DNA of 64,000 nucleotides from Gammaproteobacteria bacterium (GTDB lineage Bacteria; Pseudomonadota; Gammaproteobacteria; JAGOUN01): assembly GCA_046290385.1 (NCBI GenBank), contig JBKAGM010000004.1, positions 9,010-73,009 on the forward strand, given 5' to 3'. Each line of letters starts with the position of its first letter. Position 1 is the first letter of the stretch. The position numbers and the translations under genes are program-made. The notes under the pieces were generated by a model that ran no database searches, was not told the origin of the DNA, and saw only the letters and a list, made by a program, of their open reading frames with translations. Shown piece by piece: positions 11,271 through 52,840 of this stretch.

Positions 11271-11652
11271 TATTATAATACTTTTTTGACAAGCATTAAT
11301 AGTCAAATTAAATGTTTTTTAAACTATGTCTTGGACTGTTGTTACAAGTATATTTATACCCTTTTTGTTCCCAATTGTCTAGTGATTTTTGTAAGGGTAT
11401 TGCTAAATGAAGGGATTAGAACTGGCCTATTGATTTTTAAAAGCCCCCCCCCGGATAAACAAAGTTTTAATGCAACAGACCCAAAATCGTTTTTTTCAGG
11501 TCCCACGTATAAAAGCAAAAAATAGGCTTGAGAATGAAAAAATCTAAATGATTTTTAATGCATCATTATTATTCTTTTAAACATCTCGCTATCAATATAT
11601 TGATATCTAAGATAGTATAAATATAAGAAAAATCGAATAGAGCTCTACCATA

Positions 11653-15002: not shown

Positions 15003-15014
15003 GATCGTCTATTT

Positions 15015-26870: not shown

Positions 26871-27476
26871 TTACGCCTGCTGAATTGGCGTGATTGTCAT
26901 CGATTTTAACCGCCCTTTTACAGCCTCATCCACCACAGATGAATTTTTGAGTATTTGAATACACTCTGATAAAGTAAACAATGAAATCACCTGCATATCA
27001 TGTTTTTCTAAATTTTCTTTACCACCCTGCTGACGATCTACAATAACACAAACATGCTTGACGACTAAGCCTTCCTCTTCCAAATATGACTTAGTTGTTA
27101 ACACACTACCTCCTGTAGTAATTACATCTTCAATAATGAGACATACATCGTTTTTACTAAAATGGCCTTCTATGCGTTTTTTAGTCCCATAATCTTTGAC
27201 TTCTTTGCGCTGCACCAACATAGGAATATCATATTGCAAAGAAATCCCTGTAGCTATCGGTAATGCGGTATAAGGCACGCCACAAATGACATCGCATTTC
27301 CCACCTTCAATTTTTTTCCATAAAAGTTCCACGATAGTTTTCAAAATATTTGGATGTGAAACAATACCTCGTAGGTCCATATATATAGGTGAAATTTCTC
27401 CGCTTTTTAATTTAAACTCTCCCAATTTAATCGCACTAATTTTATAAAGTTCCTCAACCAATTCATGAATTGTCAT
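26871..27476 (-). CDS. pyrE: orotate phosphoribosyltransferase
   Basis: PRPP-binding motif VCLIIEDVITTGGS; 201 aa. Confidence 0.85.
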   Translation of the reverse strand: MTIHELVEELYKISAIKLGEFKLKSGEISPIYMDLRGIVSHPNILKTIVELLWKKIEGGKCDVICGVPYTALPIATGISLQYDIPMLVQRKEVKDYGTKKRIEGHFSKNDVCLIIEDVITTGGSVLTTKSYLEEEGLVVKHVCVIVDRQQGGKENLEKHDMQVISLFTLSECIQILKNSSVVDEAVKGRLKSMTITPIQQA

Positions 27477-28699
27477 TATAATTTCTCCAAATCAAAAAGC
27501 TGTTCTTTTAAAAATGTGTATTTTGGCTTTCCTGTGAAAGTTTGGCCAACAAATGGCGACCAACCACACTTTGTCTGCAAGCTATCTTCAGAAAGTGTGT
27601 ATTTTTCATTTAGGTCGACAAGCACAAAATCGTTTTCCTCTTCAAGCCCAAACATGTTTCTAGCATTAAGTGAAGTTAATTTTACAATGTCCTCTAAAGA
27701 TAATAGTCCTTCATGACATGCTGTGAGCAACAATGGTAAAGTTGTCTCAATGCCTGGCACACCTGAAGGCGATTTCCCATAGGGTTGATCCTTTTCTTGA
27801 GGCGTGTGTGGCGCATGATCGGATCCCATAGTATCGATAACCCCTTTTTTTATAGCTTCGAAAAGCGCCTTATGATTGATTTTATCGCGCAGTGGGGGAT
27901 TCATTTGAGCGCGACCATGCAGTCGTTCATAGTCATCAATACTTAAAAACAAATGATGTGGGGTAGTTTCAGCGTAAACACGGACACCTCGACTTTTGGC
28001 GGCCTCTATTAAGTTGAGTTCCTCAATACAACTTACGTGTAAAATATATACGGCGGTATCGTACATTTCTGATAGGAAAATAGCTTTTTCGACCGCCTTG
28101 GCTGCCACCTCTGGGGTTCTTATACAAGAGTGAACAGCATGGTTCGTTTCATTCTTATATTGCCGAGCACGCTCTTGAATCATCTCTTCATCTTCAGCGT
28201 GTACCGCCACTAATAAATTATGTGAGTGCGCCAATGAAAAGATAGCATGCAAACTACTATCATCATCCATCATCAAATCACCAGTGCTCGATCCCATAAA
28301 GACTTTAATACCAACAACTTCATTACTGATTCTATGAATCTGTTCAAAATGATTTTTGTCTGCACCGAAATATAATTGATATCGTAGAGGAACGCCTGTT
28401 TCTTTTAATTGATTATCGATCAATGTTTTCTTTTCTATCAATCGCTCTTTTGTCACACACGGAGGAAATGTATTAGGCATATCGAAAACCGTGGTATACC
28501 CTCCTTTTATTGCAGCTCGCGCAGCACATTTCCAGTCTTCTTTATACTCATGTCCCGGCGTCCTAAAATGTACATGTGGATCAATTAACCCTGGCAGCAA
28601 CGTTAACTTCGTTGCATCGACTGTAATATTTTGAGAACTAGGTAATTCCATATTCGTACGTGATCCATCAAGTAAAGCAACATTTTCTATAGTAATCAT
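27476..28699 (-). CDS. pyrC: dihydroorotase (long, active type)
   Basis: DPHVHFRTPG metal-binding motif plus downstream His/Asp ligands; 407 aa. Confidence 0.85.
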   Translation of the reverse strand: MITIENVALLDGSRTNMELPSSQNITVDATKLTLLPGLIDPHVHFRTPGHEYKEDWKCAARAAIKGGYTTVFDMPNTFPPCVTKERLIEKKTLIDNQLKETGVPLRYQLYFGADKNHFEQIHRISNEVVGIKVFMGSSTGDLMMDDDSSLHAIFSLAHSHNLLVAVHAEDEEMIQERARQYKNETNHAVHSCIRTPEVAAKAVEKAIFLSEMYDTAVYILHVSCIEELNLIEAAKSRGVRVYAETTPHHLFLSIDDYERLHGRAQMNPPLRDKINHKALFEAIKKGVIDTMGSDHAPHTPQEKDQPYGKSPSGVPGIETTLPLLLTACHEGLLSLEDIVKLTSLNARNMFGLEEENDFVLVDLNEKYTLSEDSLQTKCGWSPFVGQTFTGKPKYTFLKEQLFDLEKL

Positions 28700-29652
28700 T
28701 CTGGCACCTTGACTGTTTCATTCAACAACAATGCTAATATCGCCTGGCGGACATACAAACCATTAGCTGCTTGTTGAAAATAATACGCATGTTTTGTTTC
28801 GTCAATGACCGTATCTATTTCGTCAACACGTGGCAATGGATGCATAATTTTAAGCTCTGGTTTAGCTCGTGCTAAATCATTTAATGTTAGTCTATAAGGA
28901 GCCTGCGAGTAACTTTCAGTCATACGCTCTCTTTGCAAGCGCGTCATATATAAAATATCTGCTACTTCAATTACCTCATCAAGTGACTTATGAAGGCTAT
29001 ATTCGATTTTTTTCTGCTGAAGAAATGCTAACAGCGACTCAGGTAATGCCAATGAATCATCTGAAACAAAATATAATCTCGCTCTCAATATACGTAATGC
29101 ATGCACTAATGAGTGTACCGTTCGACCGTAACGCAGATCACCCATAAAAACGATATTAATATTATCGCTGTCAGCATAACATTCACGAATCGTGAATAAA
29201 TCTAACAAGGCCTGTGTTGGGTGCTGATTGGCGCCGTCTCCAGCATTGACCACAGGAATATTCACAGCCTCTGAAACATTTTTTGCCGATCCTTCCTCAG
29301 GGTGCCTTAGTACAATTAAATCTGCGTAACCCTCTATAACTCTCATAGCATCTACAAGGCTTTCACCTTTTTTATGCGATACGGTATTTGCATCAGAAAA
29401 ACCAATAACCTTTGCGCCTAGACGAAGCGCTGCGGATTCAAACGATAGTCGTGTGCGCGTGGATGGTTCGTAGAAGCAATTCGCTGTGATTTTATTTTTT
29501 AATAACTCTGGTGCCGATTCTTGCTTAAACTGTTTTGCTAACTGAATAATTCGGCAAATTTCTTGATCAGATAAGTCGTTTATAGAAATCAAATGGCGTC
29601 GATAAAGTGTATTACTACCTGTTATTTTCAAGCCATTTGTTCGAGTTGCCAT
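28696..29652 (-). CDS. pyrB: aspartate carbamoyltransferase catalytic subunit
   Basis: STRTR carbamoyl-phosphate-binding motif, HPTQ, and LRYGRTVHS. No pyrI follows. Confidence 0.9.
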   Translation of the reverse strand: MATRTNGLKITGSNTLYRRHLISINDLSDQEICRIIQLAKQFKQESAPELLKNKITANCFYEPSTRTRLSFESAALRLGAKVIGFSDANTVSHKKGESLVDAMRVIEGYADLIVLRHPEEGSAKNVSEAVNIPVVNAGDGANQHPTQALLDLFTIRECYADSDNINIVFMGDLRYGRTVHSLVHALRILRARLYFVSDDSLALPESLLAFLQQKKIEYSLHKSLDEVIEVADILYMTRLQRERMTESYSQAPYRLTLNDLARAKPELKIMHPLPRVDEIDTVIDETKHAYYFQQAANGLYVRQAILALLLNETVKVPE

Positions 29653-32600
29653 TCTGCAATCCTCTTTTCTATGCGCTTCGCTTCATTCTGCTTGGCTTGT
29701 ATAAAATCACGATAAGATTTAACTGGAATACGTTTTTTATCAAATCCAGATAATGCTTTCAACATTATACTAGCTAATTGTATGTTAGTAATGAGAGGAA
29801 TATGATGATCAACAGCCAAACGACGCATGACGTAACCATCCGTAATATATTGCTCACTATAATCTGGTGAGGGTATTGTAACAATTAAATCAAGCTTTTG
29901 TTCCAAAATATGCGTACGAATATTAGGTTCTTCTTCATCGCTAGATTTATAAAGTAATGTGGAAGGGATGCCATGGCGTTCTAAAAAAGCATGTGTTTTT
30001 TCTGTAGCAAAAAACTTGAATCCCAAAAGGTTCAGTTTTTTAATAGGTTCTAAGAGTTTTACTTTGCTATTTTCGCCACCCAGGCTTAAAAACAAATTTT
30101 TCCCGCGAACAATTTGATCAGTCGCACGCCAAGATTGGTAAAAAGCTGCTGTCAAATCATCTCCGATCACACCGACTTCACCAGTTGAGGCCATTTCTAC
30201 GTGCGCAACAGGATCTGCGCCTTTTAAGCGATTATATGAAAACTGAGGCGTTTTAACACCGACGTAATCCAATTCTAGCGTTTCTACATCTTTGGATGCA
30301 TGTTGATTTAAAATAACCGCGGTTGCAGATTTGATAAAATTATGCTGTGTAACTTTTGAAACAAATGGAAATGATCGTGATGCGCGGACATTACATTCAA
30401 TCACGCGAATTGCATTATTCTTTGCAATAAATTGAATATTAAAAGGTCCTGTAATTTTGAGTGCTTTAACGACTTGCCGTGTAATTTTTTTTGTTCGACG
30501 AATGGTTTCTAAATACAATTGCTGTGGAGGCAATACGATAGTCGCATCCCCAGAGTGTACACCTGCGTTTTCAACGTGCTCCGATATAGCCTCAACTACG
30601 ATTTCACCATCATCTGCAACACCATCGATTTCTAGTTCTTTTGCGCCTTCTATAAAGTCAGATAAGACAACTGGATGATCAGGAGAAACAATGGATGCTT
30701 CTTTTAAGTAATGCTCTAATTCTGATTCATTACGAACAACCTTCATTGCGGCCCCGGAGAGAACATACGAAGGGCGAATTAATACTGGATAACCTACTTT
30801 TTTTGCAAACCTTTTTGCATGCGCGATCGTTGTAACTTCTGTCCATGCCGGCTGATCAATATCCAGCTGGTTAAGTAGCGTTGAAAACGTTTTTCTGTTT
30901 TCAGCCATATCAATATTGGCCGGTTTTGTACCAAGGATAGGATAACCAGCCTGATGTAATGGCATAACAAGGTTGTTTGCGATCTGGCCACCAACACCAA
31001 CAACAATACCTTTTGGATTTTCAAAGTCAGCAATATCTTGTGTGCGCTCTAAACTAAGTTGCTCGAAGTATAAACGATCAGACTCATCATAATCTGTCGA
31101 TACTGTCTCAGGATTCGAATTAATAATAATCGACTTTTCACCAAACTCTCGCAAAGTTCTGGATGTGATGACACCACACCAATCAAATTCTACCGAGGAA
31201 CCAATACTATAAGGACCGGATCCTAGTACAATCACAGGTGATTGCTCAGAGGGCTCAACATCGTGAGAAACACCATGATAGGTCATATACAAATAATTGG
31301 TTTGGGCATCAAATTCGCCAGCTAATGTATCAATTTGTTTTACAAAAGGAGTAATCCCCCATTCTTTACGCTGTTTTCGAATAGCTTGCTCATCTGTCTC
31401 ACGCAATGTTGCAATACGTTTATCAGAAAAACCATTTTTCTTAGCACGCAAGAGTAATTCTTCTGTTAATTCTTTGCGTTTTAATTGATTTTCTAACATG
31501 ACAATTTGATATATATGATTTAAAAACCATGGGTGAATGTTCGAAAGTGCCTGTGCTTTTTCAACGTTACCACCCTGTTTGAAAAATTCTGCAATAGCAA
31601 ATAATCGTCTATCCGTAGGAAAGTGAATTTCATGTTCTGGATTCTCAATCGTATAAGGATAATCACAGATACTACTCGCGCCAATATTAAGCATAGCAGC
31701 CGCTTTTTGTAAGGCCTCTGGAAAACTGCGCCCAATGGACATAACTTCGCCCACACTTTTCATTTCTGTACCAATGCTGCGATCAGAATTTTTTAACTTT
31801 TGCGTATCCCAGCGAGGAATTTTAACCACAACATAATCGAGTGCTGGCTCGAAAAATGCGCAAGTTTTTTGTGTAATACTATTTTTAATCTCATGTAATG
31901 GATAACGTAATGCCAGTTTTGCTGCAACAAATGCTAGTGGATAACCTGTCGCCTTAGATGCTAAGGCACTCGAGCGTGACAAACGCGCATTCATTTCAAT
32001 AACACGATAATCGCCGTTTTCGGGGTTTAGTGCATACTGAATATTACATTCGCCTAATATTTTAAAATGCCTTGCCGCTTTAATAGCAATACGCCGTAGG
32101 AAGTGATATTCGTTATTCGTTAAGGTTTGTGACGGCGCAACGACAATGCTCTCACCTGTATGAACACCCATGGGGTCCATATTTTCCATGTTACAAATAG
32201 TTAATGCACTATCATTACAATCACGCACGATCTCATATTCCAACTCTTTCCAACCGATGAGATATTCTTCAATTAAAACATGCGGTGCGACAGCAAGAAT
32301 TTCTGTAGCGCGTTCTCGTAGTTGCGCCTCAGATTCAATTTTACCCGAGCCAAGACCGCCCAAAGTAAAACCGGAACGCATCATTACAGGATAGCCTATA
32401 CTTTCTGCAGCTTCTAATACCTCTTCAAGCGTACTGCAGCAATAGCTTTCTGGTGTTTTAACACCTATTTTTAGCAATTCTGATTTAAACGCATTACGAT
32501 CTTCAGTCAAACGGATAGCATCTAATGATGTTCCGAGAACTTCTATATTGTGTTTTTCCAATATGCCCTGATCAGATAATTCCAACCCTAAATTTAAAGC

Positions 32601-32906
32601 GGTTTGACCGCCAAAACCGAGCATGATGCCATCAGGTTTTTCTCTTTCGATAATTTGTTTGACTGTTTCGACATTTAAAGGTTGTAAGTAAAGCTCATCG
32701 ACTAATCCGGGTTCGGTCTGGACGGTAGCAATATTAGGATTAACTAAAACAACACGGATTCCTTCCTCTTTCAATGCCTTAATGGCTTGTGAACCAGAGT
32801 AATCAAACTCTCCAGCTTGCCCAATACGCAATCCTCCTGATCCAAGCAGTAAAACTTTTTTATTCTTAAACCCTTTTTTATCAAAGAAGCTCATAAAATC
32901 TCTCAA
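29628..32906 (-). CDS. carB: carbamoyl-phosphate synthase large subunit
   Basis: 1092 aa with duplicated ATP-grasp halves. The GQAGEFDYSG N-terminal motif occurs twice. Confidence 0.95.
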   Translation of the reverse strand: MRDFMSFFDKKGFKNKKVLLLGSGGLRIGQAGEFDYSGSQAIKALKEEGIRVVLVNPNIATVQTEPGLVDELYLQPLNVETVKQIIEREKPDGIMLGFGGQTALNLGLELSDQGILEKHNIEVLGTSLDAIRLTEDRNAFKSELLKIGVKTPESYCCSTLEEVLEAAESIGYPVMMRSGFTLGGLGSGKIESEAQLRERATEILAVAPHVLIEEYLIGWKELEYEIVRDCNDSALTICNMENMDPMGVHTGESIVVAPSQTLTNNEYHFLRRIAIKAARHFKILGECNIQYALNPENGDYRVIEMNARLSRSSALASKATGYPLAFVAAKLALRYPLHEIKNSITQKTCAFFEPALDYVVVKIPRWDTQKLKNSDRSIGTEMKSVGEVMSIGRSFPEALQKAAAMLNIGASSICDYPYTIENPEHEIHFPTDRRLFAIAEFFKQGGNVEKAQALSNIHPWFLNHIYQIVMLENQLKRKELTEELLLRAKKNGFSDKRIATLRETDEQAIRKQRKEWGITPFVKQIDTLAGEFDAQTNYLYMTYHGVSHDVEPSEQSPVIVLGSGPYSIGSSVEFDWCGVITSRTLREFGEKSIIINSNPETVSTDYDESDRLYFEQLSLERTQDIADFENPKGIVVGVGGQIANNLVMPLHQAGYPILGTKPANIDMAENRKTFSTLLNQLDIDQPAWTEVTTIAHAKRFAKKVGYPVLIRPSYVLSGAAMKVVRNESELEHYLKEASIVSPDHPVVLSDFIEGAKELEIDGVADDGEIVVEAISEHVENAGVHSGDATIVLPPQQLYLETIRRTKKITRQVVKALKITGPFNIQFIAKNNAIRVIECNVRASRSFPFVSKVTQHNFIKSATAVILNQHASKDVETLELDYVGVKTPQFSYNRLKGADPVAHVEMASTGEVGVIGDDLTAAFYQSWRATDQIVRGKNLFLSLGGENSKVKLLEPIKKLNLLGFKFFATEKTHAFLERHGIPSTLLYKSSDEEEPNIRTHILEQKLDLIVTIPSPDYSEQYITDGYVMRRLAVDHHIPLITNIQLASIMLKALSGFDKKRIPVKSYRDFIQAKQNEAKRIEKRIAEWQLEQMA

Positions 32907-33924
32907 ATAGTTGCTCTGTATCTATTGGACCTGGTGATGCTTCTGGGTGAAATTGCACAGCAAAAAATGGCTTTTCTGTATGCGCAATGCCCTGTACTGT
33001 ACCATCGTTTAAATTTTTATAGGTGACTTTCCAACCTTTTGGTAAACTTTTTTCATCAACCGCATAACCGTGATTTTGAGATGTTAAAAAACACTTATTT
33101 GTCTCTAATTCAATACAAGGATGATTTTGAGCACGATGACCAAAAGGCAATTTATATGTTTTTGCGCCAACTGCAAGCGCCAAAATTTGAGAACCCAAGC
33201 ATATACCAAACATAGGTTTATTTTGTTTTAATACCTTCTTTAATATAGAAATTGTCTTGGTACATTGAGCAGGATCGCCGGGACCATTTGAAATAAAAAC
33301 TCCGTCGAAATTGTCTTGGCTATAGTCATAGTCGTAAGGCACACGGATAATTTCAACGGGCAACTTCTGTAAATGGCGTAATATATTTTGCTTGATACCA
33401 CAATCGACAACCACAACTTTTTTGTTACCCTTCCCAAGCTTTTCTACTTCTGAGCAGGTCACTTGGCCTACCAAGTCTTCCTGGTTGACATCCAAAAATT
33501 GTTTCGGTCTTTTGGGTGTTGAGGTAATAGCGCCTAGAACAACTCCTTTAGAACGTAAAGTTTTGACAAGAGCTCGAGTATCGACACCTGTTAACATAGG
33601 TATATTTTGTGTTTTTAGCCAATTGCTTAGCGACTGCTCTGCCTCGTGATGATAATAAAAATCTGCTAACTCAGAGCAGATCATTCCAGCAGCTTGGACT
33701 TGTCGAGATTCCCAATGTTCCGGAGCAGGAACGCCATAATTACCGATAAGTGGGTAGCTAAACGTTAAGATTTGTCCTTTGTAAGAAGGATCGGTAAGTG
33801 ATTCAACATAACCGACCATGCCTGTATTAAAAACTATTTCGCCAGAAAAGGTATCATCTTGCCACTCTGGAGAGCGGCCCTCGAAAATTTCCCCTGTTTC
33901 AAGCACCAAATACGACGGTTTCAT
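32881..33924 (-). CDS. carA: carbamoyl-phosphate synthase small (glutaminase) subunit
   Basis: GICLGSQIL catalytic Cys motif and a class-I GATase domain. Overlaps the carB start. Confidence 0.9.
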   Translation of the reverse strand: MKPSYLVLETGEIFEGRSPEWQDDTFSGEIVFNTGMVGYVESLTDPSYKGQILTFSYPLIGNYGVPAPEHWESRQVQAAGMICSELADFYYHHEAEQSLSNWLKTQNIPMLTGVDTRALVKTLRSKGVVLGAITSTPKRPKQFLDVNQEDLVGQVTCSEVEKLGKGNKKVVVVDCGIKQNILRHLQKLPVEIIRVPYDYDYSQDNFDGVFISNGPGDPAQCTKTISILKKVLKQNKPMFGICLGSQILALAVGAKTYKLPFGHRAQNHPCIELETNKCFLTSQNHGYAVDEKSLPKGWKVTYKNLNDGTVQGIAHTEKPFFAVQFHPEASPGPIDTEQLFERFYELL

Positions 33925-36802: not shown

Positions 36803-37690
36803 ATTAGATGTGTATTAAAACTAAAAAAAGAACCACTGGCAGGGATGTAACAACAAGGACTCGTCATAATAACTTGACCTACATGCCCGACTTTAGCTAG
36901 GAGATGATTTGAGCCAAGCACCTCTACCTTCGCCAAATCATCGAAGAGGAAAAAGTCAGGCCTATTATTACAACGAAGTTGGCCCTGCCAATGATTCTAT
37001 ACACGATATAAAAACAGTTGAGGTGAAATTAAAACTCTAGGTCAAGAGAAGATGGTTAGGAATTTATATTAAAAAAATTTTTAATGCAAGCGGTTTTTTT
37101 AATTTTTACTAATTAAATAAATACATTATCAAAAAAGCCCCCTAAAATATCTTGCTAATTATTACCCTAAATTCTGCTGCAAAATACGAGCTTCTACTTT
37201 CAATATTGAGAATATTAGAAAACAAGCTCTTCAGCAAAGTTTTCTCAACCCTCTTTCCAATCAGATAATAGGATAAACAAGCTACGCCAAGGGCGCATCA
37301 AAAGACTATTATTTATGCATTTTTATTCTAAAAAATAAAACTCAGCCGATAATTTGTGAGATATATCTCAAAATAATGTGGCTTATATCGCTATTTTTGG
37401 GTTAAAAAAATTTACAATTCCTATGTTTATTAAGAAGTTAGCTGTTTCGGGAACAAAGAATGTATTATTTTTGTATATATTCGCTTGTTTGAGTTCATAA
37501 AAAACGCATAATAGATAGTGTTCAGGGAAGACAGCGCACAGCAAAGGATTGCCGCAAAAGGACAGGCAACAAAGGAACGGAAACTGTGCACCCCACACAG
37601 CAATGTGAGGAAAGGAAGCCGATTTATCGACAGGGATAGTCTCCTTTTTTTTGGAGGCTTATCCCCTGGGGACCAACGGTGATAATTTTT

Positions 37691-39016
37691 TCATAAACTT
37701 TCAAATTGCTCCTTGGACAATAATCCATTTACCAGCACAGGATAATGTTCCCTGATATAACCACGAAAAACACTCCGAACAATGCTATGTTCTAATCCAT
37801 TACGATGATATAAGTTCAACATCATTTGATTGTTCTTCTCTTCTAAACTTGAAATAAAACTCCTTTCCATAACTCGCTTTTCTGTATCTGGTAATAATCG
37901 ATATGCTTTCTCTATAAAATCGACAACATAATGCTGATAACGATTCTTTAATGCTTCATCATGCTTTCGTTTCTGTTGAAGCTTCAACATCTCTTTTTCT
38001 TTTTCAAGATATTGTGACTCTAAATGCTGTCGGCTCGATTTCGCTTGATAATCACCGCGTAATGCACTTAGAAAATAAGCCGCGAGATTATTGATTTCTC
38101 CCTTCTTAAAGCTTGATGATTGCTCAACAAATGAAATTTTTTCAGCAATACGCTCTTCTCCAAAGTCATTAAGAAGATCAGCAGCCTGTGTCTTGGTAAA
38201 ACCAAAGGTTTTGAGTTTTGCAATATATGCTATTTGATCTTCAGTGAGTGCGTAGCTCTCCAATTCAGTTTGTCCTATACGATTACGTTTTTCTCGAGCA
38301 CTGAGTTTAAATCGAATTTGTTTAACTTGTCGGCGCTCTTTTTTAATTTCGGGTTCAACAATCAAATCTGAAAACGCATTTACCTCCTCTATTGATTTGT
38401 CGAGAACACGTCTTTTGAAATCTCTAAAAATATCGTATTTACCGGAAGGCACTCCCATTAATTTGCGAAAAACATCGAGTTCAAACCATTTCGTTGACGA
38501 CAACCCTTTGTAGCGAACACAATTTTCATAAAGTGCGAGTCCATAACTAGATTTAAATTTAGACTGAATGATGAGATTAATTTTACCGTATACGGAAGGC
38601 GAGTAAAGCAACTCTTTCATTCTTGGACTATACGCATAATAGCAATTAGGCCCTTTTATGCTTACGCTGGCAATAATTGTACTTGCTGTCCAATCTTCTT
38701 CAGAACAATTATCATTGACTACGTTCCATTCAACAATCGTTGATACAAGCCCACGTAATGCATCTTTTATGACGCCGTGATTATTTCCTCTATACCCAAT
38801 AATCTGACATAATTCCCGGATGGTTATTTGATGCTCTTCAACGTTTTTCAATTCTGGGTAGGCATGGAACAGCAGCGCATTATTAATTTTGCGTTGTAGC
38901 AAAGTCAACATGCCAGAACTATGTATCGCAGCAGTATGTTTTTTTAACTCACCGTTCTTGCGTGCGATCTGGCCTTGCTTACTTTGTGTTGATTTTATCA
39001 TTCCTTGATCCTGCAT
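37691..39016 (-). CDS. iteron-type plasmid replication initiator protein (Rep_3-like)
   Basis: 441 aa. The N-terminal region resembles Rep_3 initiators, and the gene lies immediately downstream of five iterons. The C-terminus is a Lys/Glu-rich coiled region. Confidence 0.55.
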   Translation of the reverse strand: MQDQGMIKSTQSKQGQIARKNGELKKHTAAIHSSGMLTLLQRKINNALLFHAYPELKNVEEHQITIRELCQIIGYRGNNHGVIKDALRGLVSTIVEWNVVNDNCSEEDWTASTIIASVSIKGPNCYYAYSPRMKELLYSPSVYGKINLIIQSKFKSSYGLALYENCVRYKGLSSTKWFELDVFRKLMGVPSGKYDIFRDFKRRVLDKSIEEVNAFSDLIVEPEIKKERRQVKQIRFKLSAREKRNRIGQTELESYALTEDQIAYIAKLKTFGFTKTQAADLLNDFGEERIAEKISFVEQSSSFKKGEINNLAAYFLSALRGDYQAKSSRQHLESQYLEKEKEMLKLQQKRKHDEALKNRYQHYVVDFIEKAYRLLPDTEKRVMERSFISSLEEKNNQMMLNLYHRNGLEHSIVRSVFRGYIREHYPVLVNGLLSKEQFESL

Positions 39017-39024
39017 TGACTACT

Positions 39025-39132
39025 CCCACAAACGTCACATCTTGTCCCATAAGTGTCACACGACTATCCCATAAGTGTCACACTTTTTTCCCATAAGTGT
39101 CACAAAACATCCCACAGATGTCACACTTAACA
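39025..39132. repeat. five direct 21-22 bp iterons (candidate plasmid-type origin / Rep binding sites)
   Basis: Units start at 39025, 39046, 39068, 39090 and 39111, with core cccaYaaRtgtcaca. Three units are identical (cccataagtgtcaca). They are followed by an AT-rich stretch at 39133-39300. Confidence 0.7.
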
Positions 39133-39305
39133 TAATTTTATCTTCTATTTTCAACAGCTTAGCTTCCCTAAAACTATTAAAACATTTAAAAACATTACAC
39201 AACATCAAGTGTTGTTATTTATTTGTAATATCATTTATCATAACTTTGATTTTATTAGAATTCAAGGTATATAATATATCATGCTATATGGTAATACATT
39301 AAGGA

Positions 39306-40178
39306 TTGTGTCATATGAAAGTTATTGCTGCAGTAAGTAATAAGGGAGGCGTTGGAAAAACAAAACTCAGCGCATTATTAACAGAATATTTAGCGAAGTA
39401 TACAAAGAAAAAAGTTTTAGCTATCGATTTTGATCCGCAATGTAATTTTTCTTTGCGTTACTTGCCTATGGAGATGGATCCAGCAGCCCCGGAAGGTTTA
39501 ATGCCACCTATTCATCCCGATTACAACCCAGACGAAGATGAAGAGTGGGATGGCCGCAGCAGTATTGCAGATATTTTCTTTGGACAAGGTGTTGTTCCAT
39601 ATCCAACTTTTATCAAAAATGTAGATATTGCGCCTGGACATGCTGAACGTTTGTTAGCCGCAGAAATGGTGCGCAGAAGTGAAGTTGCTGAAAGAATTCA
39701 CAGGCAGCTTAAAATATTTTTAAATTCCCCAGATTTGCAAGAAGCGTATGATGTCGTTATTGTGGACACCGCTCCTTCAAAAGGACCATTGACTGTAAGC
39801 GTAATTAAGGCGGCCACCGATATTGTTATTCCTTCAGTAATGGAAGAACAACCTATTCAGGGGATATACGGTATGTTACAACTTTGGATGCAGGAATCAT
39901 TTAATCGAAAATCCGATAACCCATTGAATTTAGTAGGAATATTGCCAAACATGTTTAAAAACACAACGCTACATCGCGATATGTATGAGTCGTTGTTGAG
40001 TAATGAGGGTATTGGTAAGTATATGATGCCAATGAAAATAAGCCAGCGGATTGTATATGCTGAAATTGATTCAGAGGATGCAAGCCCAAGAACGATTTTT
40101 GATTTACCTGATAATCACATTGCGAAACGTGAAGCGGTAACTGTTTGTGAATACATCATGAAGGAGGTGTTTGGATGA
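39306..40178 (+). CDS. parA: ParA/Soj-family partition ATPase (plasmid type)
   Basis: Deviant Walker A KGGVGKT; the start is probably MKVIAAV at 39318; insertion-bearing relative to chromosomal Soj. Confidence 0.85.
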   Translation: MCHMKVIAAVSNKGGVGKTKLSALLTEYLAKYTKKKVLAIDFDPQCNFSLRYLPMEMDPAAPEGLMPPIHPDYNPDEDEEWDGRSSIADIFFGQGVVPYPTFIKNVDIAPGHAERLLAAEMVRRSEVAERIHRQLKIFLNSPDLQEAYDVVIVDTAPSKGPLTVSVIKAATDIVIPSVMEEQPIQGIYGMLQLWMQESFNRKSDNPLNLVGILPNMFKNTTLHRDMYESLLSNEGIGKYMMPMKISQRIVYAEIDSEDASPRTIFDLPDNHIAKREAVTVCEYIMKEVFG

Positions 40179-41194
40179 GTAAGAAAAAACGTTTTGGAAT
40201 TTCCCAAGCAATGGGACGAGGGCTGACGGATACCGTTAATCTGGTTGAACGTAATCCTGGAAAATTTAGAAGCGGCATGATTCCGATGTCGCGCATTGAG
40301 ACAGATCCTGACAACCCAAGGCAACTATCATTAAATATTCATGATATTCAGCAGGGCCTTAATAAAAATGATCCGGATTATGAGCGCAAACGAACAGAAT
40401 TTGAAATGTTAGAGGAGCTTGCCGAGACCATTAGAAAAAGTGGCATCATTAATCCTATTGTTGTATATAAGCGCGATCAAAATTATCGAATTGTTGCTGG
40501 TGAAAGGCGTTTCTTAGCTTCAATGATTGCCGGAAAAACAGAGATTGATGCCAGAATTTATAATGAAAAACCAATTGGATTAGACTTAAAGTTAGTGCAA
40601 TGGTATGAAAATACTGCAAGGGCAGACTTGTCATTACATGAGCGTGTGCAGAATGTAGAGGAGCTTATCAAGGCCTATGTTAAACGTTTTTCAGATCAAT
40701 CTATTAATGACGCGAAAGATTTAAAAGAACTCGTTGGGCTTTCACTAAACCAAGCACGCTATTACCTTAACGTCATAAAAGCTCCAGAAGATGTAAAGAA
40801 CGCAATCGCGAATGGACAAATCAATAGCCTGGACAAGGCGGCTGCCATAGCGAATGTGGGATCAAATGATATTCGCACGAAAGCATTATTCGCTTGTCTC
40901 AATGGTGCTTCTTTGAAAGACATTCGGGCAGTTATTGCTAGAGAGAAGGAAAATCAATCAAGTTTAGCCACATCGCTCAAGTCTGAGTCTCGTGGACGAG
41001 CACCCCAATATATTCAGTTGGGAAAAACGAAACACTTCGCGGTAGTGAGGGAGATTATTGAGGCAGTTTTGCGCGATGCAAAATATTCACATCATTCTAA
41101 GGCTTTTGCCAATGCTGAATGGGATGATTATGCTAATGTCAGCACGACATTCAAAGAATTTCTTAAGATAGTAGAATTAGAGACAATGGAGTAA
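40175..41194 (+). CDS. parB: ParB/RepB/Spo0J-family partition protein (plasmid type)
   Basis: ParB N-domain PIVVYKRDQNYRIVAGERRFLAS; the start overlaps the parA stop by 4 nt. Confidence 0.8.
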   Translation: MSKKKRFGISQAMGRGLTDTVNLVERNPGKFRSGMIPMSRIETDPDNPRQLSLNIHDIQQGLNKNDPDYERKRTEFEMLEELAETIRKSGIINPIVVYKRDQNYRIVAGERRFLASMIAGKTEIDARIYNEKPIGLDLKLVQWYENTARADLSLHERVQNVEELIKAYVKRFSDQSINDAKDLKELVGLSLNQARYYLNVIKAPEDVKNAIANGQINSLDKAAAIANVGSNDIRTKALFACLNGASLKDIRAVIAREKENQSSLATSLKSESRGRAPQYIQLGKTKHFAVVREIIEAVLRDAKYSHHSKAFANAEWDDYANVSTTFKEFLKIVELETME

Positions 41195-41197
41195 ATA

Positions 41198-41551
41198 ATG
41201 ACTAAACAACATACCACCACAGTAAAGCTCCCTAAATCACTTCATCAGAAAATGATGGAGCAAGTGATATGTGACGGCTATGGTATGCGTGGCAAAAGTA
41301 AATGGATGGGTGAAGCCATCGAAGATTTTTTGTCTTTAAGTAATTTCCCTGAGCTAGTGGATATCGCTGATGATCTTGAAAACCTTAGTGAAATTGTGAG
41401 TTTGCGGTTGTCAGATCCTCTGGCTCGAGATTTGGACCAAGCCGTTGTTCGAGTGCGAGCAGAATATCCTGTTTTAGAGGGTGTAAAAAGCAACATTATT
41501 CGAGCAAGCATTCTCCAACGTTTAATACACCCATCTTCCACTATTTCATAG
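41198..41551 (+). CDS. hypothetical protein downstream of parB
   Basis: 117 aa ORF 4 nt after the parB stop. No recognisable motif. Confidence 0.35.
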   Translation: MTKQHTTTVKLPKSLHQKMMEQVICDGYGMRGKSKWMGEAIEDFLSLSNFPELVDIADDLENLSEIVSLRLSDPLARDLDQAVVRVRAEYPVLEGVKSNIIRASILQRLIHPSSTIS

Positions 41552-41704
41552 TCCCGACACGGGCACCGTGCACATCAGTAACGGCATGAAAATTATAGAA
41601 ATTTTTTAAAATTAATTATATTTTTTAAACAGATTTTCTTGTCGCTTGTAATGGATATAGTTTAAGTTTTATGTGACATTTATGGGAGTCACAAGATGCT
41701 TTAA

Positions 41705-41720
41705 TGTTCTACGTGGAACA
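41705..41720. promoter_or_regulatory. parS-like palindrome
   Basis: tgttctacgtggaaca matches 13 of 16 positions of the chromosomal parS consensus TGTTTCACGTGAAACA, and sits directly at the stop codon of the Spo0J-type parB. Confidence 0.4.
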
Positions 41721-42524
41721 TTATTTTCCTTTATCTTCGACATTGGCCGTGAAACCCATTTTAGAGAATACGCCATCAAGGATGTCGATATTGTGAAAGT
41801 GGATTTTAATCATACCATCGCCCTCATCGAATTCGATATCCGTTTTACAACCTATATGATCAGAAAAAGCTTTTTCCAAGTTTTTAATATCAGGGTCTTT
41901 TTTGGTGATTAGTTTTTGTTTTGCAGTTTGTATTTTCTTTATTTCTTGTTCGATTTTACGAACACTCCATCCTCGGGCAATGGCTCGTTTTGCTAAGTCT
42001 ATCTGTTGTTTATGTGCGAGCACGGCGAGTACTTTGCCGTGACCTTCGCTTAGTCGGCCCTCAATAATGAGCTCTTGTACGGAATTATCGAGTTTTAAGA
42101 GTCTTAATGAGTTGGTAATTTTAACGCGTGATTTACCTACGGCTGCAGCGACCTCGTCATGGGAGTAATCGAATTCATTGATTAATCGCTGATATGCATT
42201 GGCCACTTCAATAGGGTTTAAATCCACTCGATTGATATTCTCAATCATGGCCGCCTCAGCCGCTTGTTCATCACTATAGTGTTTAATAATGCAGTTAATA
42301 GTATCTATGCCAGCTCGTTGAGAGGCACGCCAGCGTCGCTCACCAGCAATAATTTCATAATGACCGCCCTTTATAGGTCTGACGACGATAGGTTGTAATA
42401 AACCTGCTGATTTAATAGAGGCCGCTAGCTCTTCTAGAGCTTCTTGATCAAATTCGTAACGTGGTTGATAACGGCCACGTTGAATTTGATCAATAGGGAT
42501 TTGACGTAAGTCTAGTTTTGTCAT
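41721..42524 (-). CDS. parB: chromosomal-type ParB/Spo0J partition protein (orphan, no adjacent soj)
   Basis: Canonical Spo0J motifs: GERRWRASQ, IENINRVDLNPIEVA, a SLRLLKL HTH, and LSEGHGKVL. Confidence 0.85.
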   Translation of the reverse strand: MTKLDLRQIPIDQIQRGRYQPRYEFDQEALEELAASIKSAGLLQPIVVRPIKGGHYEIIAGERRWRASQRAGIDTINCIIKHYSDEQAAEAAMIENINRVDLNPIEVANAYQRLINEFDYSHDEVAAAVGKSRVKITNSLRLLKLDNSVQELIIEGRLSEGHGKVLAVLAHKQQIDLAKRAIARGWSVRKIEQEIKKIQTAKQKLITKKDPDIKNLEKAFSDHIGCKTDIEFDEGDGMIKIHFHNIDILDGVFSKMGFTANVEDKGK

Positions 42525-49825: not shown

Positions 49826-50536
49826 TCATAGTGTGACCTCTTCCAAAAAAGAGGCCATAGCACCCCAGGAGCGCTTGTCAGCAACCGCATTATATATTGT
49901 GCCAAGCTTTATATCCTTCGCTTGAGGGTTAGTAAAAGCATGTTGTGTATTACCATATGCGTGGCATTGCCAATCAGCTCCCGCTTTGGTCATCTCATCC
50001 AAAAAGGAAGTTAGTTGTTTGGGTGGTACCATAGGATCATCATAGCCGTGTAGTACGAGAATTTTCGCTTTAATGGGGTTTGCGGCTAACTCTTCAGGGG
50101 CATCCAACAAACCATGAAAACTGATAACGCCTTGAATATCTGTTCCTGAGCGCGCTAAATCGAGGGCACACAAGCCGCCGAAACAAAACCCCATGACGAC
50201 AATCTTATCTGTATCAGCGTTCTTAAGGCTTTTAGCGGCGTTTAGCGCTATTATCATTCTATCGCGCAATAGCGAGCGATCCTTCATAAAGGGACTCATA
50301 AGTGTTGAGTTTTCTTCAACGCTATTGCCCACGATACCTTTTCCATACATGTCGAGAGCAAAGCCAATATAACCTAGCTCTGCGATACTTTTTGCTTTCT
50401 CACAAGCGAAATCATCTCGACCTGCCCAGGCATGAGCGATGAGAACTACCGGTTTTTTCCCTGGATTGCCGTCATCAGCGATAAATGCTTCTAAGGTTGT
50501 TCCCTGGTGTTCGTAGTCGAGAGTATATGTCTTCAT
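49826..50536 (-). CDS. dienelactone hydrolase family protein
   Basis: alpha/beta hydrolase with nucleophile motif GFCFGG and a DLH-like N-terminus. Confidence 0.8.
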   Translation of the reverse strand: MKTYTLDYEHQGTTLEAFIADDGNPGKKPVVLIAHAWAGRDDFACEKAKSIAELGYIGFALDMYGKGIVGNSVEENSTLMSPFMKDRSLLRDRMIIALNAAKSLKNADTDKIVVMGFCFGGLCALDLARSGTDIQGVISFHGLLDAPEELAANPIKAKILVLHGYDDPMVPPKQLTSFLDEMTKAGADWQCHAYGNTQHAFTNPQAKDIKLGTIYNAVADKRSWGAMASFLEEVTL

Positions 50537-50580
50537 GATAAATTCCTTATGGCGTTTTTTGTGCTAAAATATCGCACTAT

Positions 50581-52840
50581 GAACGATGATATCCAAAACC
50601 AAATGCGACAGCAAGCGATTGAACTGGCTGCACAAATGCAACACCGTTTTGTGACGGTAGAACATTTGTTATTAACGATTGTAGAGGATGAGTATGGGGA
50701 TGCTTGCCAGGCTTTATTACATAATGCGCGTGCCGAGTTTAATGCCAATATACTAAAAACAGATTTACAGTTGTTTCTTGAGCGACAGTCACCGAAACGA
50801 AAAAATGGTGAGGCACCTAAACCCACCATGGGTTTTGAGCGTGTACTAGAGCGTGCACGACGTATCGTACGTGATCACGGACGATTACGATTAACTGCAG
50901 CAGATATGCTGATATCAATTTTTTACGAACAAGAAAGTAAGGCAACGCACTTGATGAATAAGCAAGGTGTTACACGCCACGATATTAATGATTATTTAAC
51001 CCGAACAAAACAAGAAGCTGCAGCTGAACCTCAAGCTGAATCGAAGCAACAATTTGTGGTGCAGGTTATTGAAAAAACACAAGAGCAAAAAAAGGCAACG
51101 GCACACGATAATACCTTGTTAGAAAATTTAAATGAAAAATATCGCCAAGGGCGCTTATCGCCATTAGTAGGCCGTACGCAAGAAATACAGGCAATGATGC
51201 GAGTGTTATCACAAAGCCGAAAGAGTAATCCAATATTAGTAGGAGATCCTGGGACAGGAAAAACGACGTTGGCAGCAGGGTTGGCACAAATTATTGAAGA
51301 CGGAAACGCACCGCCTTTGTTACAATCTGCTACCGTCTATGCCTTGAATGTAACAGCCTTACTAGCGGGTACTCAATATCGTGGTGATTTTGAACAGCGA
51401 TTAAAGCGCGTTATGGATATATTGCAGCGTGATCCGCATGCGATTTTATTTATTGATGAAATACATATTATCATTGGAGCGGGTAGTACAACTGGATCGA
51501 CTATGGATGTCGCAAATATGTTAAAACCTGCGCTCGCATCGGGTGAACTACGTTGTATTGGCGCAACTACCTACAAAGAGTATCGAAACATTTTTGAAAA
51601 AGATGAAGCTCTTGCTAGGCGATTTCAAAAAATTGATATTTTAGAACCAACAGAAGAAGAGGCCATACATATCATACAAGGTTTGAAATCACGTTTTGAA
51701 AACCATCATCATTTAACGATTTCTGATGAAGTCATTAAGTCAGCCGTACAACTTTCAAAGAAATACATTAAGAAACGCTGCTTGCCAGATATTGCAATAG
51801 ATTTAATTGATGAAGCAGGTGCTGAAAAAAACTTATCAAACCAACATGATACTGCATTAAGTATTTCAGATGTAGAAGCTGTAGTTGCTGCAAAAACTCG
51901 TGTTCCGATTGAAAAAATGACTCTGAATGAACAAGATGTGTTAAAACACTTAGCGCAGAACTTAAAAACCCATATTTATGGACAAGATGTGGCTGTAGAT
52001 ACACTAGTTTCAGCTGTACGTACCGCACGAGCGGGATTACGTGATCCTGATAAGCCTATAGGATCGTTTTTATTTGCAGGTCCAACTGGCGTGGGTAAAA
52101 CTGAATTAAGTAAACAGTTGGCCGAGCATTTAGGACTAAAACTTATTCGCTTTGATATGTCAGAATATAACGAAAAGCATCAAGTCTCGAAGCTGATTGG
52201 ATCACCGCCTGGCTATGTAGGGCACGAAGAGGGTGGATTATTGACGGAGGCTGTTAATAAAGACCCAAATGCGGTGGTGTTGTTAGATGAAATCGAAAAA
52301 GCACATTCTGATATTTATAATTTACTTCTGCAAGTCATGGATCATGGTACATTGACAGACAGTCATGGCCGAAAATCAGATTTTCGACATGTGATTTTGA
52401 TTATGACAACCAATGCTGGCGCAGAGTTTTTGGGAAAACGCAGCATTGGCTTTATAGAATCAGACAATAAAAATGATTCTAAATTAGAACTCGCACGTGT
52501 TTTCACACCAGAATTTCGTAATCGTTTCGATGAAATTGTATCGTTTAATTCGTTGCCTAAGGAAGTCATGCATGACATTGTGCGTAAACATGTGAAGCAG
52601 TTACAGCATATGTTAGAATCACGCGGAGTTAGCCTTTCTTTGACTGAAGACGCTTTCGTTTGGTTTGCAAATCATGGATATGATTCACAGATGGGCGCGC
52701 GTCCAATGGGCCGATTGGTTACTAACCAATTAAAAAAACCACTTGCTGAAGAACTATTATATGGAAAATTATCGCAAGGCGGCTATGTGATTGTGGATGC
52801 CATAGGTAATGAGCTGATATTTCAATACGAAGAAGGGTAG
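50581..52840 (+). CDS. clpA: ATP-dependent Clp protease ATP-binding subunit ClpA
   Basis: Clp N-domain, two AAA+ modules (GDPGTGKT and GPTGVGKT), and a C-terminal D2-small domain. The ORF call 50507..52840 begins upstream; the start is taken at MNDDIQ. Confidence 0.9.

Follow-up and report, generated by a model that had tools for sequence, protein, structure and literature searches.

The closest tested relative of the locus described here is the minimal replicon of the Coxiella burnetii plasmid QpH1, whose initiator CBUA0039 is 44% identical to the Rep protein of the window (the whole 64,000-nucleotide stretch of DNA that was analysed). The CBUA0036-39a segment of QpH1 sustains autonomous low-copy replication, for which Rep is essential; ParA and ParB are required for stability, and CBUA0036 is dispensable for maintenance (bioRxiv 10.1101/2020.03.22.001875). 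Like the window, this segment (CBUA0036-CBUA0039a) encodes a Rep3-type initiator and a ParA/ParB pair accompanied by a Spo0J-type ParB on the opposite strand, and has an A+T-rich stretch adjoining its iterons. In the comparison with related plasmids that an earlier note on this DNA had proposed, the 21-bp iterons of QpH1 (TGCGACATTTGCAGG) proved to be of the same motif family as those of the window (TGTGACACTTATGGG). The differences lie in size, as QpH1 has only 37 kb, in gene order (tandem parA-parB-rep with iterons upstream of parA in QpH1, divergent in the window), in ParA (406 aa and SopA-like, compared with 287 aa in the window) and in iteron number (four instead of five). Homology searches reported no QpH1 homologue of ORF117, the third gene of the window's par operon.

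The best relatives in the databases are all plasmids, from C. burnetii (44%), Legionella and Aquicella. Plasmids of Aquicella lusitana (plasmid 4, 77 kb; NZ_LR699116.1, 92 kb) and of Legionella longbeachae (sizes of 74-108 kb) have the four genes of the window's set, with identities to the window proteins of 41-50% for Rep, 33-39% for ParB (39% for plasmid 4) and 35-38% for ORF117. Unlike the window replicon, they are plasmids of the ordinary kind, from species in culture. On Aquicella plasmid 4 the genes are arranged in tandem, with a group II intron breaking the series, and an AbiEi/AbiEii pair adjoins rep; such a pair also occurs in the window.

The window's origin logic is shared with the classical iteron plasmids and their Rep3-fold initiators (pSC101 RepA, F RepE, R6K pi, pPS10 RepA). 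Common elements are direct repeats spaced by two helical turns, an A+T-rich stretch as (in the window, candidate) unwinding element, an adjacent WH1-WH2 initiator gene, an IHF-like site between unwinding element and iterons, and distal iterons that could act in copy control. The window differs from these plasmids by some 200 additional residues at the Rep C-terminus, by having no detected DnaA box, and by far larger replicons.

Chromids are plasmid-type replicons that carry core genes. They are recognised by plasmid-type replication and partition, a host-like nucleotide composition, and core or essential genes that occur once per genome and lie on the chromosome in relatives. The first of these traits is present in the window: as in Vibrio chromosome 2 (RctB), alphaproteobacterial repABC replicons and Pseudoalteromonas chromosome II, a plasmid-derived initiator is combined with ParAB. 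Further shared properties are a large replicon with usually chromosomal metabolic genes, homogeneous composition, and skew centred on a plasmid-type origin. However, the window's initiator belongs to the Rep3 family and not, as in those examples, to RctB or RepC, part of the window's cargo is horizontally acquired, and the core status of that cargo is putative. A survey of gammaproteobacterial multipartite genomes places Aquicella and Legionella among the genera with some such genomes, and reports Rep_3 for 30 of the 404 replicons that it screened (PMC10272867).

Replication origin and initiator gene

The locus has the following features.

36803-37690: spacer downstream of rep, 0.9 kb, non-coding, 65% A+T
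37691-39016, minus strand: rep, Rep3-family (WH1+WH2) iteron-binding initiator, 441 aa; Pfam Rep3_N and Rep3_C
39025-39125, plus strand: five direct iterons with CCCAYARRTGTCACA core, 21-22 bp period, 8 bp upstream of the rep ATG
39126-39305: A+T-rich candidate unwinding region, 77.8% A+T, peak 82.5%
39149-39161: IHF-like site within the A+T-rich region, from consensus and conservation
about 39166-39200: three phased A/T 10-11-mers within the A+T-rich region
39246-39275: parA promoter-like site, TTGATT-18-TATAAT
39315-40178, plus strand: parA, Walker-type partition ATPase with KGGVGKT, 287 aa; Pfam AAA_31 and CbiA
40175-41194, plus strand: parB, ParB N-terminal domain, 339 aa; Pfam ParB_N
41198-41551, plus strand: ORF117, 117 aa, third gene of the par operon
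41672-41686, minus strand: distal iteron (sixth copy, by motif match), inverted relative to the origin iterons, candidate copy-control (handcuffing) site
41705-41720: parS-like 16-bp near-palindrome TGTTCTACGTGGAACA, with a counterpart in related loci
41721-42524, minus strand: orphan Spo0J-type ParB, abutting the parS-like site; Pfam ParB_N, HTH_ParB and ParB_C
Flank genes, one side: thioesterase, mipA, nudC, carA, carB, pyrB, pyrC
Flank genes, other side: serB, serA, lexA

Rep has the tandem winged-helix domains, WH1 and WH2, of Rep3 (Pfam Rep_3) initiators; its matches to Rep3_N (1.9e-17, residues 24-166) and Rep3_C (3.1e-15, residues 179-237) both pass the curated cut-offs. The earlier note's 441-aa initiator beside the iterons is thus confirmed, and the frameshift or truncation that would have undone its reading is absent: compared with 22 homologues, the protein is complete in length (94-99% coverage) and shares numerous invariant columns. 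The search for Rep homologues found 1084. An alternative start, called by NCBI, lies 5 codons downstream at 39001 and gives 436 aa. The C-terminal extension is kept across the Rep family. None of the solved Rep structures matched the window Rep at the sequence level.

The iteron copies start at 39025, 39046, 39068, 39090 and 39111. Their number and spacing agree with the earlier description, but the array ends at 39125 and not at 39132. Matches to CCCAYARRTGTCACA number six in the window against 0.46 expected, a count reached in 0 of 100 shuffles. Direct iterons next to rep with a phase of about 22 bp, adjoined by an A+T-rich element, are what is expected of a Rep3 replicon. The same iteron motif, number and spacing upstream of rep are found in 66 of 84 loci (a count that takes in L001, the window's own contig), and the possibility that the repeats are not conserved iterons can be set aside. 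The A+T-rich stretch had also been seen correctly. In an origin alignment of the related loci, its phased A/T 11-mers are kept over 20 loci, and a conserved operator-like block lies directly past the -10 hexamer of the parA promoter-like site. Unwinding element, IHF site and operator are putative labels, for which conservation and consensus are the sole basis.

DnaA boxes are present in many, though not all, Rep3 origins. Here, none (TTATCCACA, at most one mismatch) lies within 39000-39320. Over the window such boxes occur at chance level (20 found, 20 expected), and the origin alignment of related loci contains no conserved DnaA box.

Base-composition skew locates the origin. The check that had been suggested around 39.1 kb places the cumulative G-C skew minimum at 39206, in the A+T-rich spacer between iterons and parA, with a skew of -0.074 on its left side and +0.068 on its right; none of 20000 block shuffles reached the observed statistic. 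Third codon positions behave alike in plus- and minus-strand genes: their plus-strand GC3 skew is negative left of this point (-0.15/-0.19) and positive right of it (+0.22/+0.20). Since this flip at 39206 holds for both gene orientations, the site is a long-used bidirectional origin of all the visible DNA. The skew remains negative out to 8.5 kb past the left end of the window, and the two arms extend for at least 47.7 and 24.8 kb. The sign changes only at the origin, and the skew is continuous over both module borders. The G+C content is uniform (0.32-0.43 per kb over the window, 0.33-0.40 in the module). Of 43 testable related loci, 40 have negative skew upstream of rep and positive skew on the rep side. 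In 28 of the 43, the minimum is found upstream of the rep match at a distance of 180-560 bp; contigs of 750, 697 and 372 kb are among these. As indirect evidence, the skew indicates that the origin is active in vivo and that theta replication proceeds in both directions. The earlier suggestion that the iteron origin may be functional is strengthened by this minimum, by iteron conservation over the Rep family and by the proven autonomy of QpH1.

Partition genes and the parS-like site

The divergent ParA/ParB pair, its 4-nt overlap and the 117-aa ORF that follows are as first reported. ParA is a deviant Walker A ATPase (AAA_31, 4.5e-22; CbiA, 1.4e-16) that lacks an N-terminal HTH extension; parB lies directly 3' of parA, as in ParABS systems, and its product matches ParB_N (1.5e-14). 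Copies of parA that are 50-70% identical adjoin rep in 78 of 83 loci. Both parB and ORF117 were found in 75 of the 83, ORF117 also being present on the Aquicella and L. longbeachae plasmids, and Rep, ParA, ParB and ORF117 occur together in 75. The ORF117 alignment (A2) displays two strand-helix-helix units. The protein matches the ribbon-helix-helix (RHH) domain of NikR weakly (E=0.28), and its single-sequence AF2 model is of low confidence (pLDDT 62). By inference from these data, ORF117 probably encodes a DNA-binding protein with two ribbon-helix-helix repeats that acts as a regulator or a centromere accessory.

The parS-like palindrome of the window is not significant by itself. Related loci with the divergent layout have a single copy of a TGTTCYAYRTRGAACA site, usually no more than a few hundred bp 3' of the par operon, with or without a nearby Spo0J-type ParB; in tandem-layout loci the site lies elsewhere within the module. 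This conservation of a homologous site near the par operon makes the palindrome a probable centromere. Distal iterons, in one to four copies, lie at most 150 bp from 32 of 53 parS-like sites in related loci. The orphan Spo0J-type ParB is 41% identical to QpH1 CBUA0036, which occupies an equivalent position. Of the 83 loci, 8 have a homologue no more than 10 kb from rep. The gene probably has an accessory role in the backbone. This gene, the palindrome and the distal inverted iteron had all escaped the earlier note.

Cargo, flanks and competing readings

The non-coding, A+T-rich character of the 0.9-kb flank at 36803-37690 is upheld: it has no convincing ORF, no ORF homology and no Rfam match, and neither blastn nor tblastn found a match to it in related loci. 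L004, the closest relative, lacks it and has a permease gene directly 3' of rep. The spacer is only a putative part of the replicon core. Annotation likewise bears out the flank genes named earlier, with thioesterase and carAB-pyr on one side and serBA and lexA on the other. Chromosomal-type cargo comprises bioABFHCD with birA, folE, carAB-pyrBC, serAB, lexA, cydAB and dinB; the AbiE toxin-antitoxin pair and eukaryote-like IDO and ASMase-like genes are also present. Judged by sequence, part of the 'core' cargo is foreign, being xenologous or paralogous: carB shares 66-69% identity with the Chlamydiae gene as against about 41% with its gammaproteobacterial counterpart, and the divergent ClpA copy scores under the NCBIfam cut-off. 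The cargo is therefore only putatively essential. To call the module embedded among chromosomal housekeeping genes was misleading; it is the backbone of a plasmid-type replicon.

The skew, which makes the Rep/iteron site the origin of all visible DNA, would also suit a main-chromosome origin, at which a QpH1-like replicon had replaced DnaA/oriC and the window marked the origin of the principal or only chromosome. The chromosomal-looking cargo and the Spo0J-type ParB and parS-like site next to the origin point the same way, as do two large relatives whose skew minimum lies at rep, one a contig of 750 kb, the other a record of 697 kb with the title "chromosome: 1". However, the 697-kb record has plasmid-like origin flanks (AbiEii, Fic, TPR), and the parS-like site and extra ParB are plasmid-backbone traits common to QpH1. 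Neither the window nor its left extension contains a tRNA gene, and only one was found in 1.27 Mb around the 83 such origins (Poisson P <= 2e-5 against chromosomal tRNA densities); rRNA and ribosomal protein genes are absent from the 72 kb. Four metagenome-assembled genomes (MAGs) have two modules, on different contigs, the relatives' flanks lack synteny except in L004, and carB and ClpA are atypical, as described above. The annotated parts of the window and its 8.5-kb left extension contain no dnaA, dnaN, mnmG or rsmG, and a chromosomal oriC, with its DnaA-box cluster and origin-linked genes, is not found. A main-chromosome origin is accordingly unlikely. Two observations do speak against a secondary replicon, namely the absence of a DnaA box in and around the origin and the very large sequences on which some relatives are found.

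An integrated plasmid or remnant in a DnaA-driven chromosome, its Rep origin silent or only occasionally used, had been offered earlier as one of two readings. C. burnetii is described as carrying chromosomally integrated QpRS-like plasmid sequences, and housekeeping-type neighbours with uniform G+C would suit an old insertion. Yet the skew of 72 kb of flanking DNA would not have its minimum at an inert insert; here the minimum falls inside the 180-bp origin spacer, and the GC3 sign change is seen in genes of either orientation across 72 kb or more. Moreover, every gene and cis element is intact, and the search for an attachment site came back empty: no tRNA target and no direct repeats at the module borders beyond chance pairs. 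No integrase appeared among the annotated ORFs (Pfam/NCBIfam), and DnaA boxes are not enriched. L004, from a different organism (Rep 59% identical), retains the linkage of rep to mipA-carA-carB. Integration is very unlikely. The same relative, in which rep lies by homologues of gadC, BT1, mipA, carA and carB, argues against an assembly chimera, that is, a small plasmid contig wrongly joined to chromosomal contigs. Such an error is conceivable in a metagenome-assembled source with an A+T-rich 0.9-kb spacer flanking rep, but identical junctions occur in two independent assemblies (NCBI MAG contig, 96.5 kb; Logan contig, 92 kb), and the skew is unbroken over both borders, flipping only at the origin. 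A chimera is highly improbable.

Replicon identity and proposed mechanism

The region 37.7-42.5 kb very probably serves a secondary replicon of plasmid type, large and low in copy number (megaplasmid or chromid), as its backbone for replication and partition; this replicon belongs to an uncultured Coxiellaceae/Legionellales-like gammaproteobacterium and has the rest of the window as cargo. Of the alternatives raised earlier, the maintenance system of a secondary replicon is thus favoured by the skew minimum in the origin spacer and by a switch independent of gene orientation. Skew and module evidence together also favour reading the contig as a plasmid-type replicon with the module as its backbone, a case that the earlier note had foreseen as an objection.

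All module elements are present, intact and conserved across the family, and the skew gives the position of the origin. Established iteron-plasmid and ParABS biology and the QpH1 experiments suggest how they may work. Rep monomers would bind the five iterons and, probably aided by a host protein that bends DNA at the IHF-like site, would melt the A+T-rich element next to them; two forks would then depart in opposite directions, the step shown by the skew. Iteron-bound Rep would also cover the rep leader and so autoregulate rep, while the distal inverted iteron by parS may pair with the origin iterons and limit copy number by handcuffing. ParB would load at the single parS-like palindrome 3' of the operon, ParA would segregate the copies, and the 117-aa RHH-like protein may regulate the par operon or help at the centromere.

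The same module, with its iteron motif, parS and distal iterons, occurs in about 75 of 83 loci from MAGs of uncultured Coxiellaceae/Legionellales, on contigs of up to 750 kb. Given these large relatives, the module may serve a main chromosome in some lineages.

Skew and layout of the module

The cumulative G−C skew of the window drops from the left end to about 39–40 kb and then climbs; at base resolution its minimum is at position 39206, within the A+T-rich spacer of the Rep3/iteron module. On average the skew is −0.074 left of this point and +0.068 beyond it; when 1-kb blocks were shuffled 20000 times, no permutation produced a V shape as strong as the one observed. Since skew can also track transcription, third codon positions were examined as well, always read on the plus strand and separately for the genes of each strand. 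On the left side of the origin the values for the two gene strands are −0.148 and −0.192, and on the right side they are +0.223 and +0.195; the sign of the skew is therefore set by the side of the origin and not by gene orientation. Such a pattern is the mark of long-term bidirectional replication starting here, and it identifies the module as the origin used by the DNA on both sides. Negative skew persists in every 1-kb block of the left extension, which runs 8.5 kb past the left end of the window. This gives arm lengths of at least 47.7 kb (left) and at least 24.8 kb (right), and the terminus is not within the DNA covered. DnaA boxes occur in the window at chance frequency, with none inside the origin.

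Elements of the module (window coordinates)
36803–37690: non-coding spacer downstream of rep, 0.9 kb, 65% A+T
37691–39016, minus strand: rep, 441 aa, Pfam Rep3_N and Rep3_C
39025–39125: five iterons, CCCAYARRTGTCACA, in direct orientation, spaced 21–22 bp
Between iterons and parA: A+T-rich spacer, 180 bp, 77.8% A+T
39149–39161: TAAC...TTGA element, one mismatch to the IHF consensus
39246–39275: parA promoter-like site, TTGATT-18-TATAAT, the best promoter-like match of the region
39315–40178, plus strand: parA, KGGVGKT motif, Pfam AAA_31/CbiA
40175–41194, plus strand: parB, Pfam ParB_N, 4-nt overlap with parA
41198–41551, plus strand: 117-aa ORF (ORF117), without Pfam family
41672–41686: sixth CCCAYARRTGTCACA copy, inverted, 2.5 kb away from the others and beside the parS-like site
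41705–41720: parS-like palindrome, TGTTCYAYRTRGAACA, adjoining the gene for a Spo0J-type ParB
41721–42524: orphan Spo0J-type ParB

The earlier note had described an iteron origin next to rep, a divergent parA–parB pair and a 117-aa ORF, flanked by non-coding A+T-rich DNA, and this description holds in each respect. The ORF listing, direct reading and Pfam agree on the genes, and the five direct repeats do lie beside both rep and the A+T-rich stretch. The six matches to the repeat compare with 0.46 expected, and none of 100 shuffles reached six. The alignment of Rep with 22 homologues extends over the whole protein and has about 100 invariant positions, showing that Rep is neither truncated nor frameshifted; a search of PDB sequences with a Rep profile gave no match. 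The flank at 36803–37690 contains no credible ORF, has no Rfam match and shows no sequence similarity to related loci; it is missing from the closest relative (L004). The alignment of the ORF117 family displays two successive strand-helix-helix units, the first of which aligns weakly with the ribbon-helix-helix (RHH) domain of NikR (E=0.28). Because this match is weak and the single-sequence AF2 model is of low confidence (too little for a fold search), the protein is described here as putatively tandem-RHH-like.

Relatives, conserved cis-elements and a working model

The best matches of Rep in PLSDB are plasmid initiators. Identity is 44% over 96% of the protein for the Coxiella burnetii plasmids QpH1, QpRS and QpDG, 37–42% for Legionella plasmids, and 50% over 74% for Aquicella lusitana plasmid 4. 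A large protein collection yielded 1084 homologues, and the exact protein recurs in a MAG contig (96.5 kb) and in a 92-kb contig that Logan assembled from SRR22269038. With alignment A1 as profile, a scan of one genome per species found 141 relatives, almost all of them MAGs labelled uncultured Coxiellaceae, Legionellales or Gammaproteobacteria; the same kind of scan of genome contigs with a single Rep sequence as query returned no matches. Homologues of Rep, ParA (50–70% identity), ParB and the 117-aa ORF occur together in 75 of the 83 loci fetched, divergently arranged as in the window for most and in tandem in one sub-clade. Flanking genes are not conserved, except that L004, whose Rep is 59% identical, has rep linked to gadC-like, BT1, mipA, carA and carB genes as in the window.

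Four MAGs carry two different modules on separate contigs (L028 and L063, L006 and L068, L022 and L069, L016 and L065), in each case one divergent and one tandem, with different iteron variants. This suggests either compatible sister replicons in one genome or two strains binned together. Large members of the family are found on contigs of 750, 372, 320, 300 and 271 kb. The longest (ERZ26871208 contig) has 749,608 bp; another, OZ257147.1, has 697,420 bp and is titled "chromosome: 1". In these two the skew minimum is at the Rep/iteron spacer.

The partition genes can also be found without this initiator. The 329-kb plasmid CP114554.1 of "Ca. Manganitrophus sp." has a parA-parB-ORF117 cassette (ParB 36% and ORF117 43% identical), and there it adjoins another initiator, which carries the annotation replication initiator protein A; the cassette therefore moves independently of Rep. 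As this cassette is all that the two have in common, the "Ca. Manganitrophus" plasmids were rejected as relatives of the whole replicon.

The cis-elements are conserved along with the genes. At least three copies of TGTGACrnnTrTGGG, the window's iteron motif as read on the rep strand, lie upstream of rep in 66 of 84 loci (the window's own contig counted), most of which have exactly five copies spaced 21–22 bp; the tandem sub-clade has the variant TGTGACnyTTACAGG. The repeats are therefore true iterons. In 20 aligned origins the order is fixed: the parA start is followed by a conserved block directly past the parA −10 hexamer, then A/T-rich DNA containing three phased 11-mers that resemble TTTTGTTTA, the conserved TAAC...TTGA element, five iterons and rep. 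The parS-like palindrome is present as a single copy downstream of the par operon in most loci, and at 32 of 53 sites one to four extra iterons, mostly inverted, lie within 150 bp of it.

For QpH1, function has been examined by experiment. An E. coli vector with the 5.6-kb segment CBUA0036-0039a replicates stably in C. burnetii, at a low copy number like that of QpH1, which it displaces; deletion of rep (CBUA0039) leaves only transient transformants, deletion of the partition genes CBUA0037 or CBUA0038 makes the plasmids unstable, and the Spo0J-like CBUA0036 is dispensable (bioRxiv 10.1101/2020.03.22.001875). That work proposed as origin an A+T-rich region together with four iteron-like repeats of 21 bp (bioRxiv 10.1101/2020.03.22.001875). 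The window iterons and the repeats of QpH1, TGCGACATTTGCAGG and AGCGACGTTTGCGGG, share a motif family, and CBUA0036 is 41% identical to the window's Spo0J-type ParB and equivalent in position.

Element order, conservation and origin position are matters of observation; established iteron-plasmid and ParABS biology, together with the QpH1 data, suggest how the parts would work. Rep monomers would occupy the five iterons and open the phased A/T 11-mers (about 39166–39230), with bending at the IHF-like site. Host helicase and polymerase would then be recruited, possibly via the family-specific C-terminal half of Rep, and forks would leave in both directions. Repression of rep would come from iteron-bound Rep, which sits over the rep leader. 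Copy number may be limited by handcuffing, in which Rep would pair iterons at the distal inverted copy that lies 2.5 kb off beside parS. ParB would nucleate at the single parS-like site and ParA would distribute the copies, and the 117-aa protein would probably bind the block past the parA −10 hexamer, or help at the centromere.

Cargo

The cargo is a mosaic. Biosynthetic and core-type genes comprise a biotin set with birA, folE, carA-carB-pyrB-pyrC with a phosphoribosyltransferase gene, serB-serA, lexA, cydAB, nagA, dsbG, purU and dinB. The remainder includes AbiEi/AbiEii, an indoleamine 2,3-dioxygenase (IDO), an acid-sphingomyelinase-like phosphoesterase, many transporters and large orphan ORFs.

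Selected cargo (window coordinates unless stated)
342–3860, with 10962–15184 of the left extension (L086): biotin pathway and birA-like gene
9515–11234, minus strand: AbiEi/AbiEii type IV toxin-antitoxin pair (Pfam)
16409–18711, minus strand: adjacent, eukaryote-like genes for IDO and a calcineurin-like phosphoesterase with acid-sphingomyelinase C-terminal region
26871–33924: phosphoribosyltransferase gene, pyrC-like, pyrB, carB, carA
50507–52840, plus strand: ClpA-like AAA+ protein, without adjacent clpS

The biotin pathway is complete: bioA, bioB and bioF are identified by NCBIfam, and bioH-, bioC- and bioD-like genes by Pfam domains and gene order. birA usually resides on the chromosome as a single, essential copy. 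The carB protein is 66–69% identical to carB proteins whose named sources are mostly Chlamydiae (Simkaniaceae, Rhabdochlamydiaceae) or Verrucomicrobia, and only about 41% identical to those of Legionella, Acinetobacter and E. coli. Judged from carB alone, the pyrimidine operon was probably acquired from PVC bacteria. The ClpA homologue scores below the NCBIfam ClpA cut-off (940.7 vs 993.15), its best matches are only 50–55% identical, and there are no Legionellales in the top 120; it is probably a divergent extra copy. IDO is assigned by Pfam (1e-96), and in 10 related loci homologues of the neighbouring phosphoesterase are encoded less than 10 kb from the Rep module. The AbiEi/AbiEii pair directly adjoins rep on A. 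lusitana plasmid 4 and in OZ257147.1, and may recur in this plasmid family as a module that confers stability.

Nature and significance of the replicon

The earlier note left a choice between an integrated plasmid (or remnant) and the maintenance system of a secondary replicon or chromid. The former is rejected: tRNA genes, border direct repeats beyond chance pairs and, among the annotated ORFs, an integrase are all lacking, the features tested for oriC are lacking too, and the skew minimum inside the spacer marks the module as origin of the DNA around it. A secondary replicon with a functional iteron origin is supported by the skew minimum, the conserved iterons and the autonomous relative QpH1. 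The module shows the tested defining features of ParABS systems and of Rep3 iteron replicons, apart from a DnaA box, which is not universal, and its replication system is of the kind that defines chromids. In function and descent the replicon belongs with the Rep3 iteron replicons of QpH1/Legionella/Aquicella type and has a ParABS cassette; it resembles chromids in size and cargo.

The favoured reading is that the window is part of a secondary, plasmid-like replicon and not a piece of chromosome. That the replicon might serve as a main chromosome is a minor rival, to which the size of some family members (up to the 750-kb contig and the 697-kb "chromosome: 1") and the skew minimum at rep in all large members tested lend some weight. 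However, the origin-proximal sequence from 83 loci (1.27 Mb) holds a single tRNA gene, where a chromosomal density of one per 50–100 kb predicts 13–27 (P ≤ 2e-5); the window and left extension hold none, and tRNA and Rfam searches of the window gave no matches. The MAGs with two modules each, flanks that are not conserved except in L004, the mosaic cargo with its Chlamydiae-like carB and divergent ClpA, and the origin flanks of OZ257147.1 (AbiEii, Fic, TPR and orphan genes) likewise favour a secondary replicon. That the Spo0J-type ParB and the parS-like site point to a genuine chromosomal origin was considered and rejected, because the site is conserved in the module with or without that ParB and QpH1 has the same extra ParB. 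A more far-reaching proposal, which we regard as improbable, is that the Rep3/iteron-ParABS-RHH module marks a widespread, undescribed lineage of replicons of 0.2 to at least 0.75 Mb in uncultured Coxiellaceae, where in at least some members (e.g. OZ257147.1) it starts replication of the main or sole chromosome, and that the window belongs to such a chromosome or to an essential chromid on which pyrimidine, biotin and serine synthesis have come to reside.

Reading the contig as a secondary replicon bears on MAG binning, completeness estimates and metabolic reconstruction of uncultured Coxiella and Legionella relatives. A plasmid-type replicon with metabolic genes will not surprise the specialist; the family is notable for its range of sizes and its wide distribution, and what is added is the family-level picture of one backbone in about 75 of 83 loci, a defined cis-architecture, sizes to at least 0.75 Mb and cargo that is partly Chlamydiae-derived. 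Literature searches found no description of Coxiellaceae chromids or Legionellales megaplasmids in MAGs, nor a paper on a conserved Rep/Par backbone recurring across uncultured Coxiellaceae/Legionellales MAGs. The architecture of five iterons, unwinding element, IHF-like site, distal iterons and parS could guide the design of Legionellales shuttle vectors. The medically relevant QpH1 replicon of C. burnetii now falls within a much larger environmental family, whose replicons can reach hundreds of kb and gather whole biosynthetic operons; the Chlamydiae-like carB fits gene exchange among intracellular bacteria. It is possible, with low probability, that some members are sole chromosomes. Any such member would offer a natural system for testing chromosome replication without DnaA, in a bacterial chromosome started by a plasmid Rep and not by DnaA/oriC.
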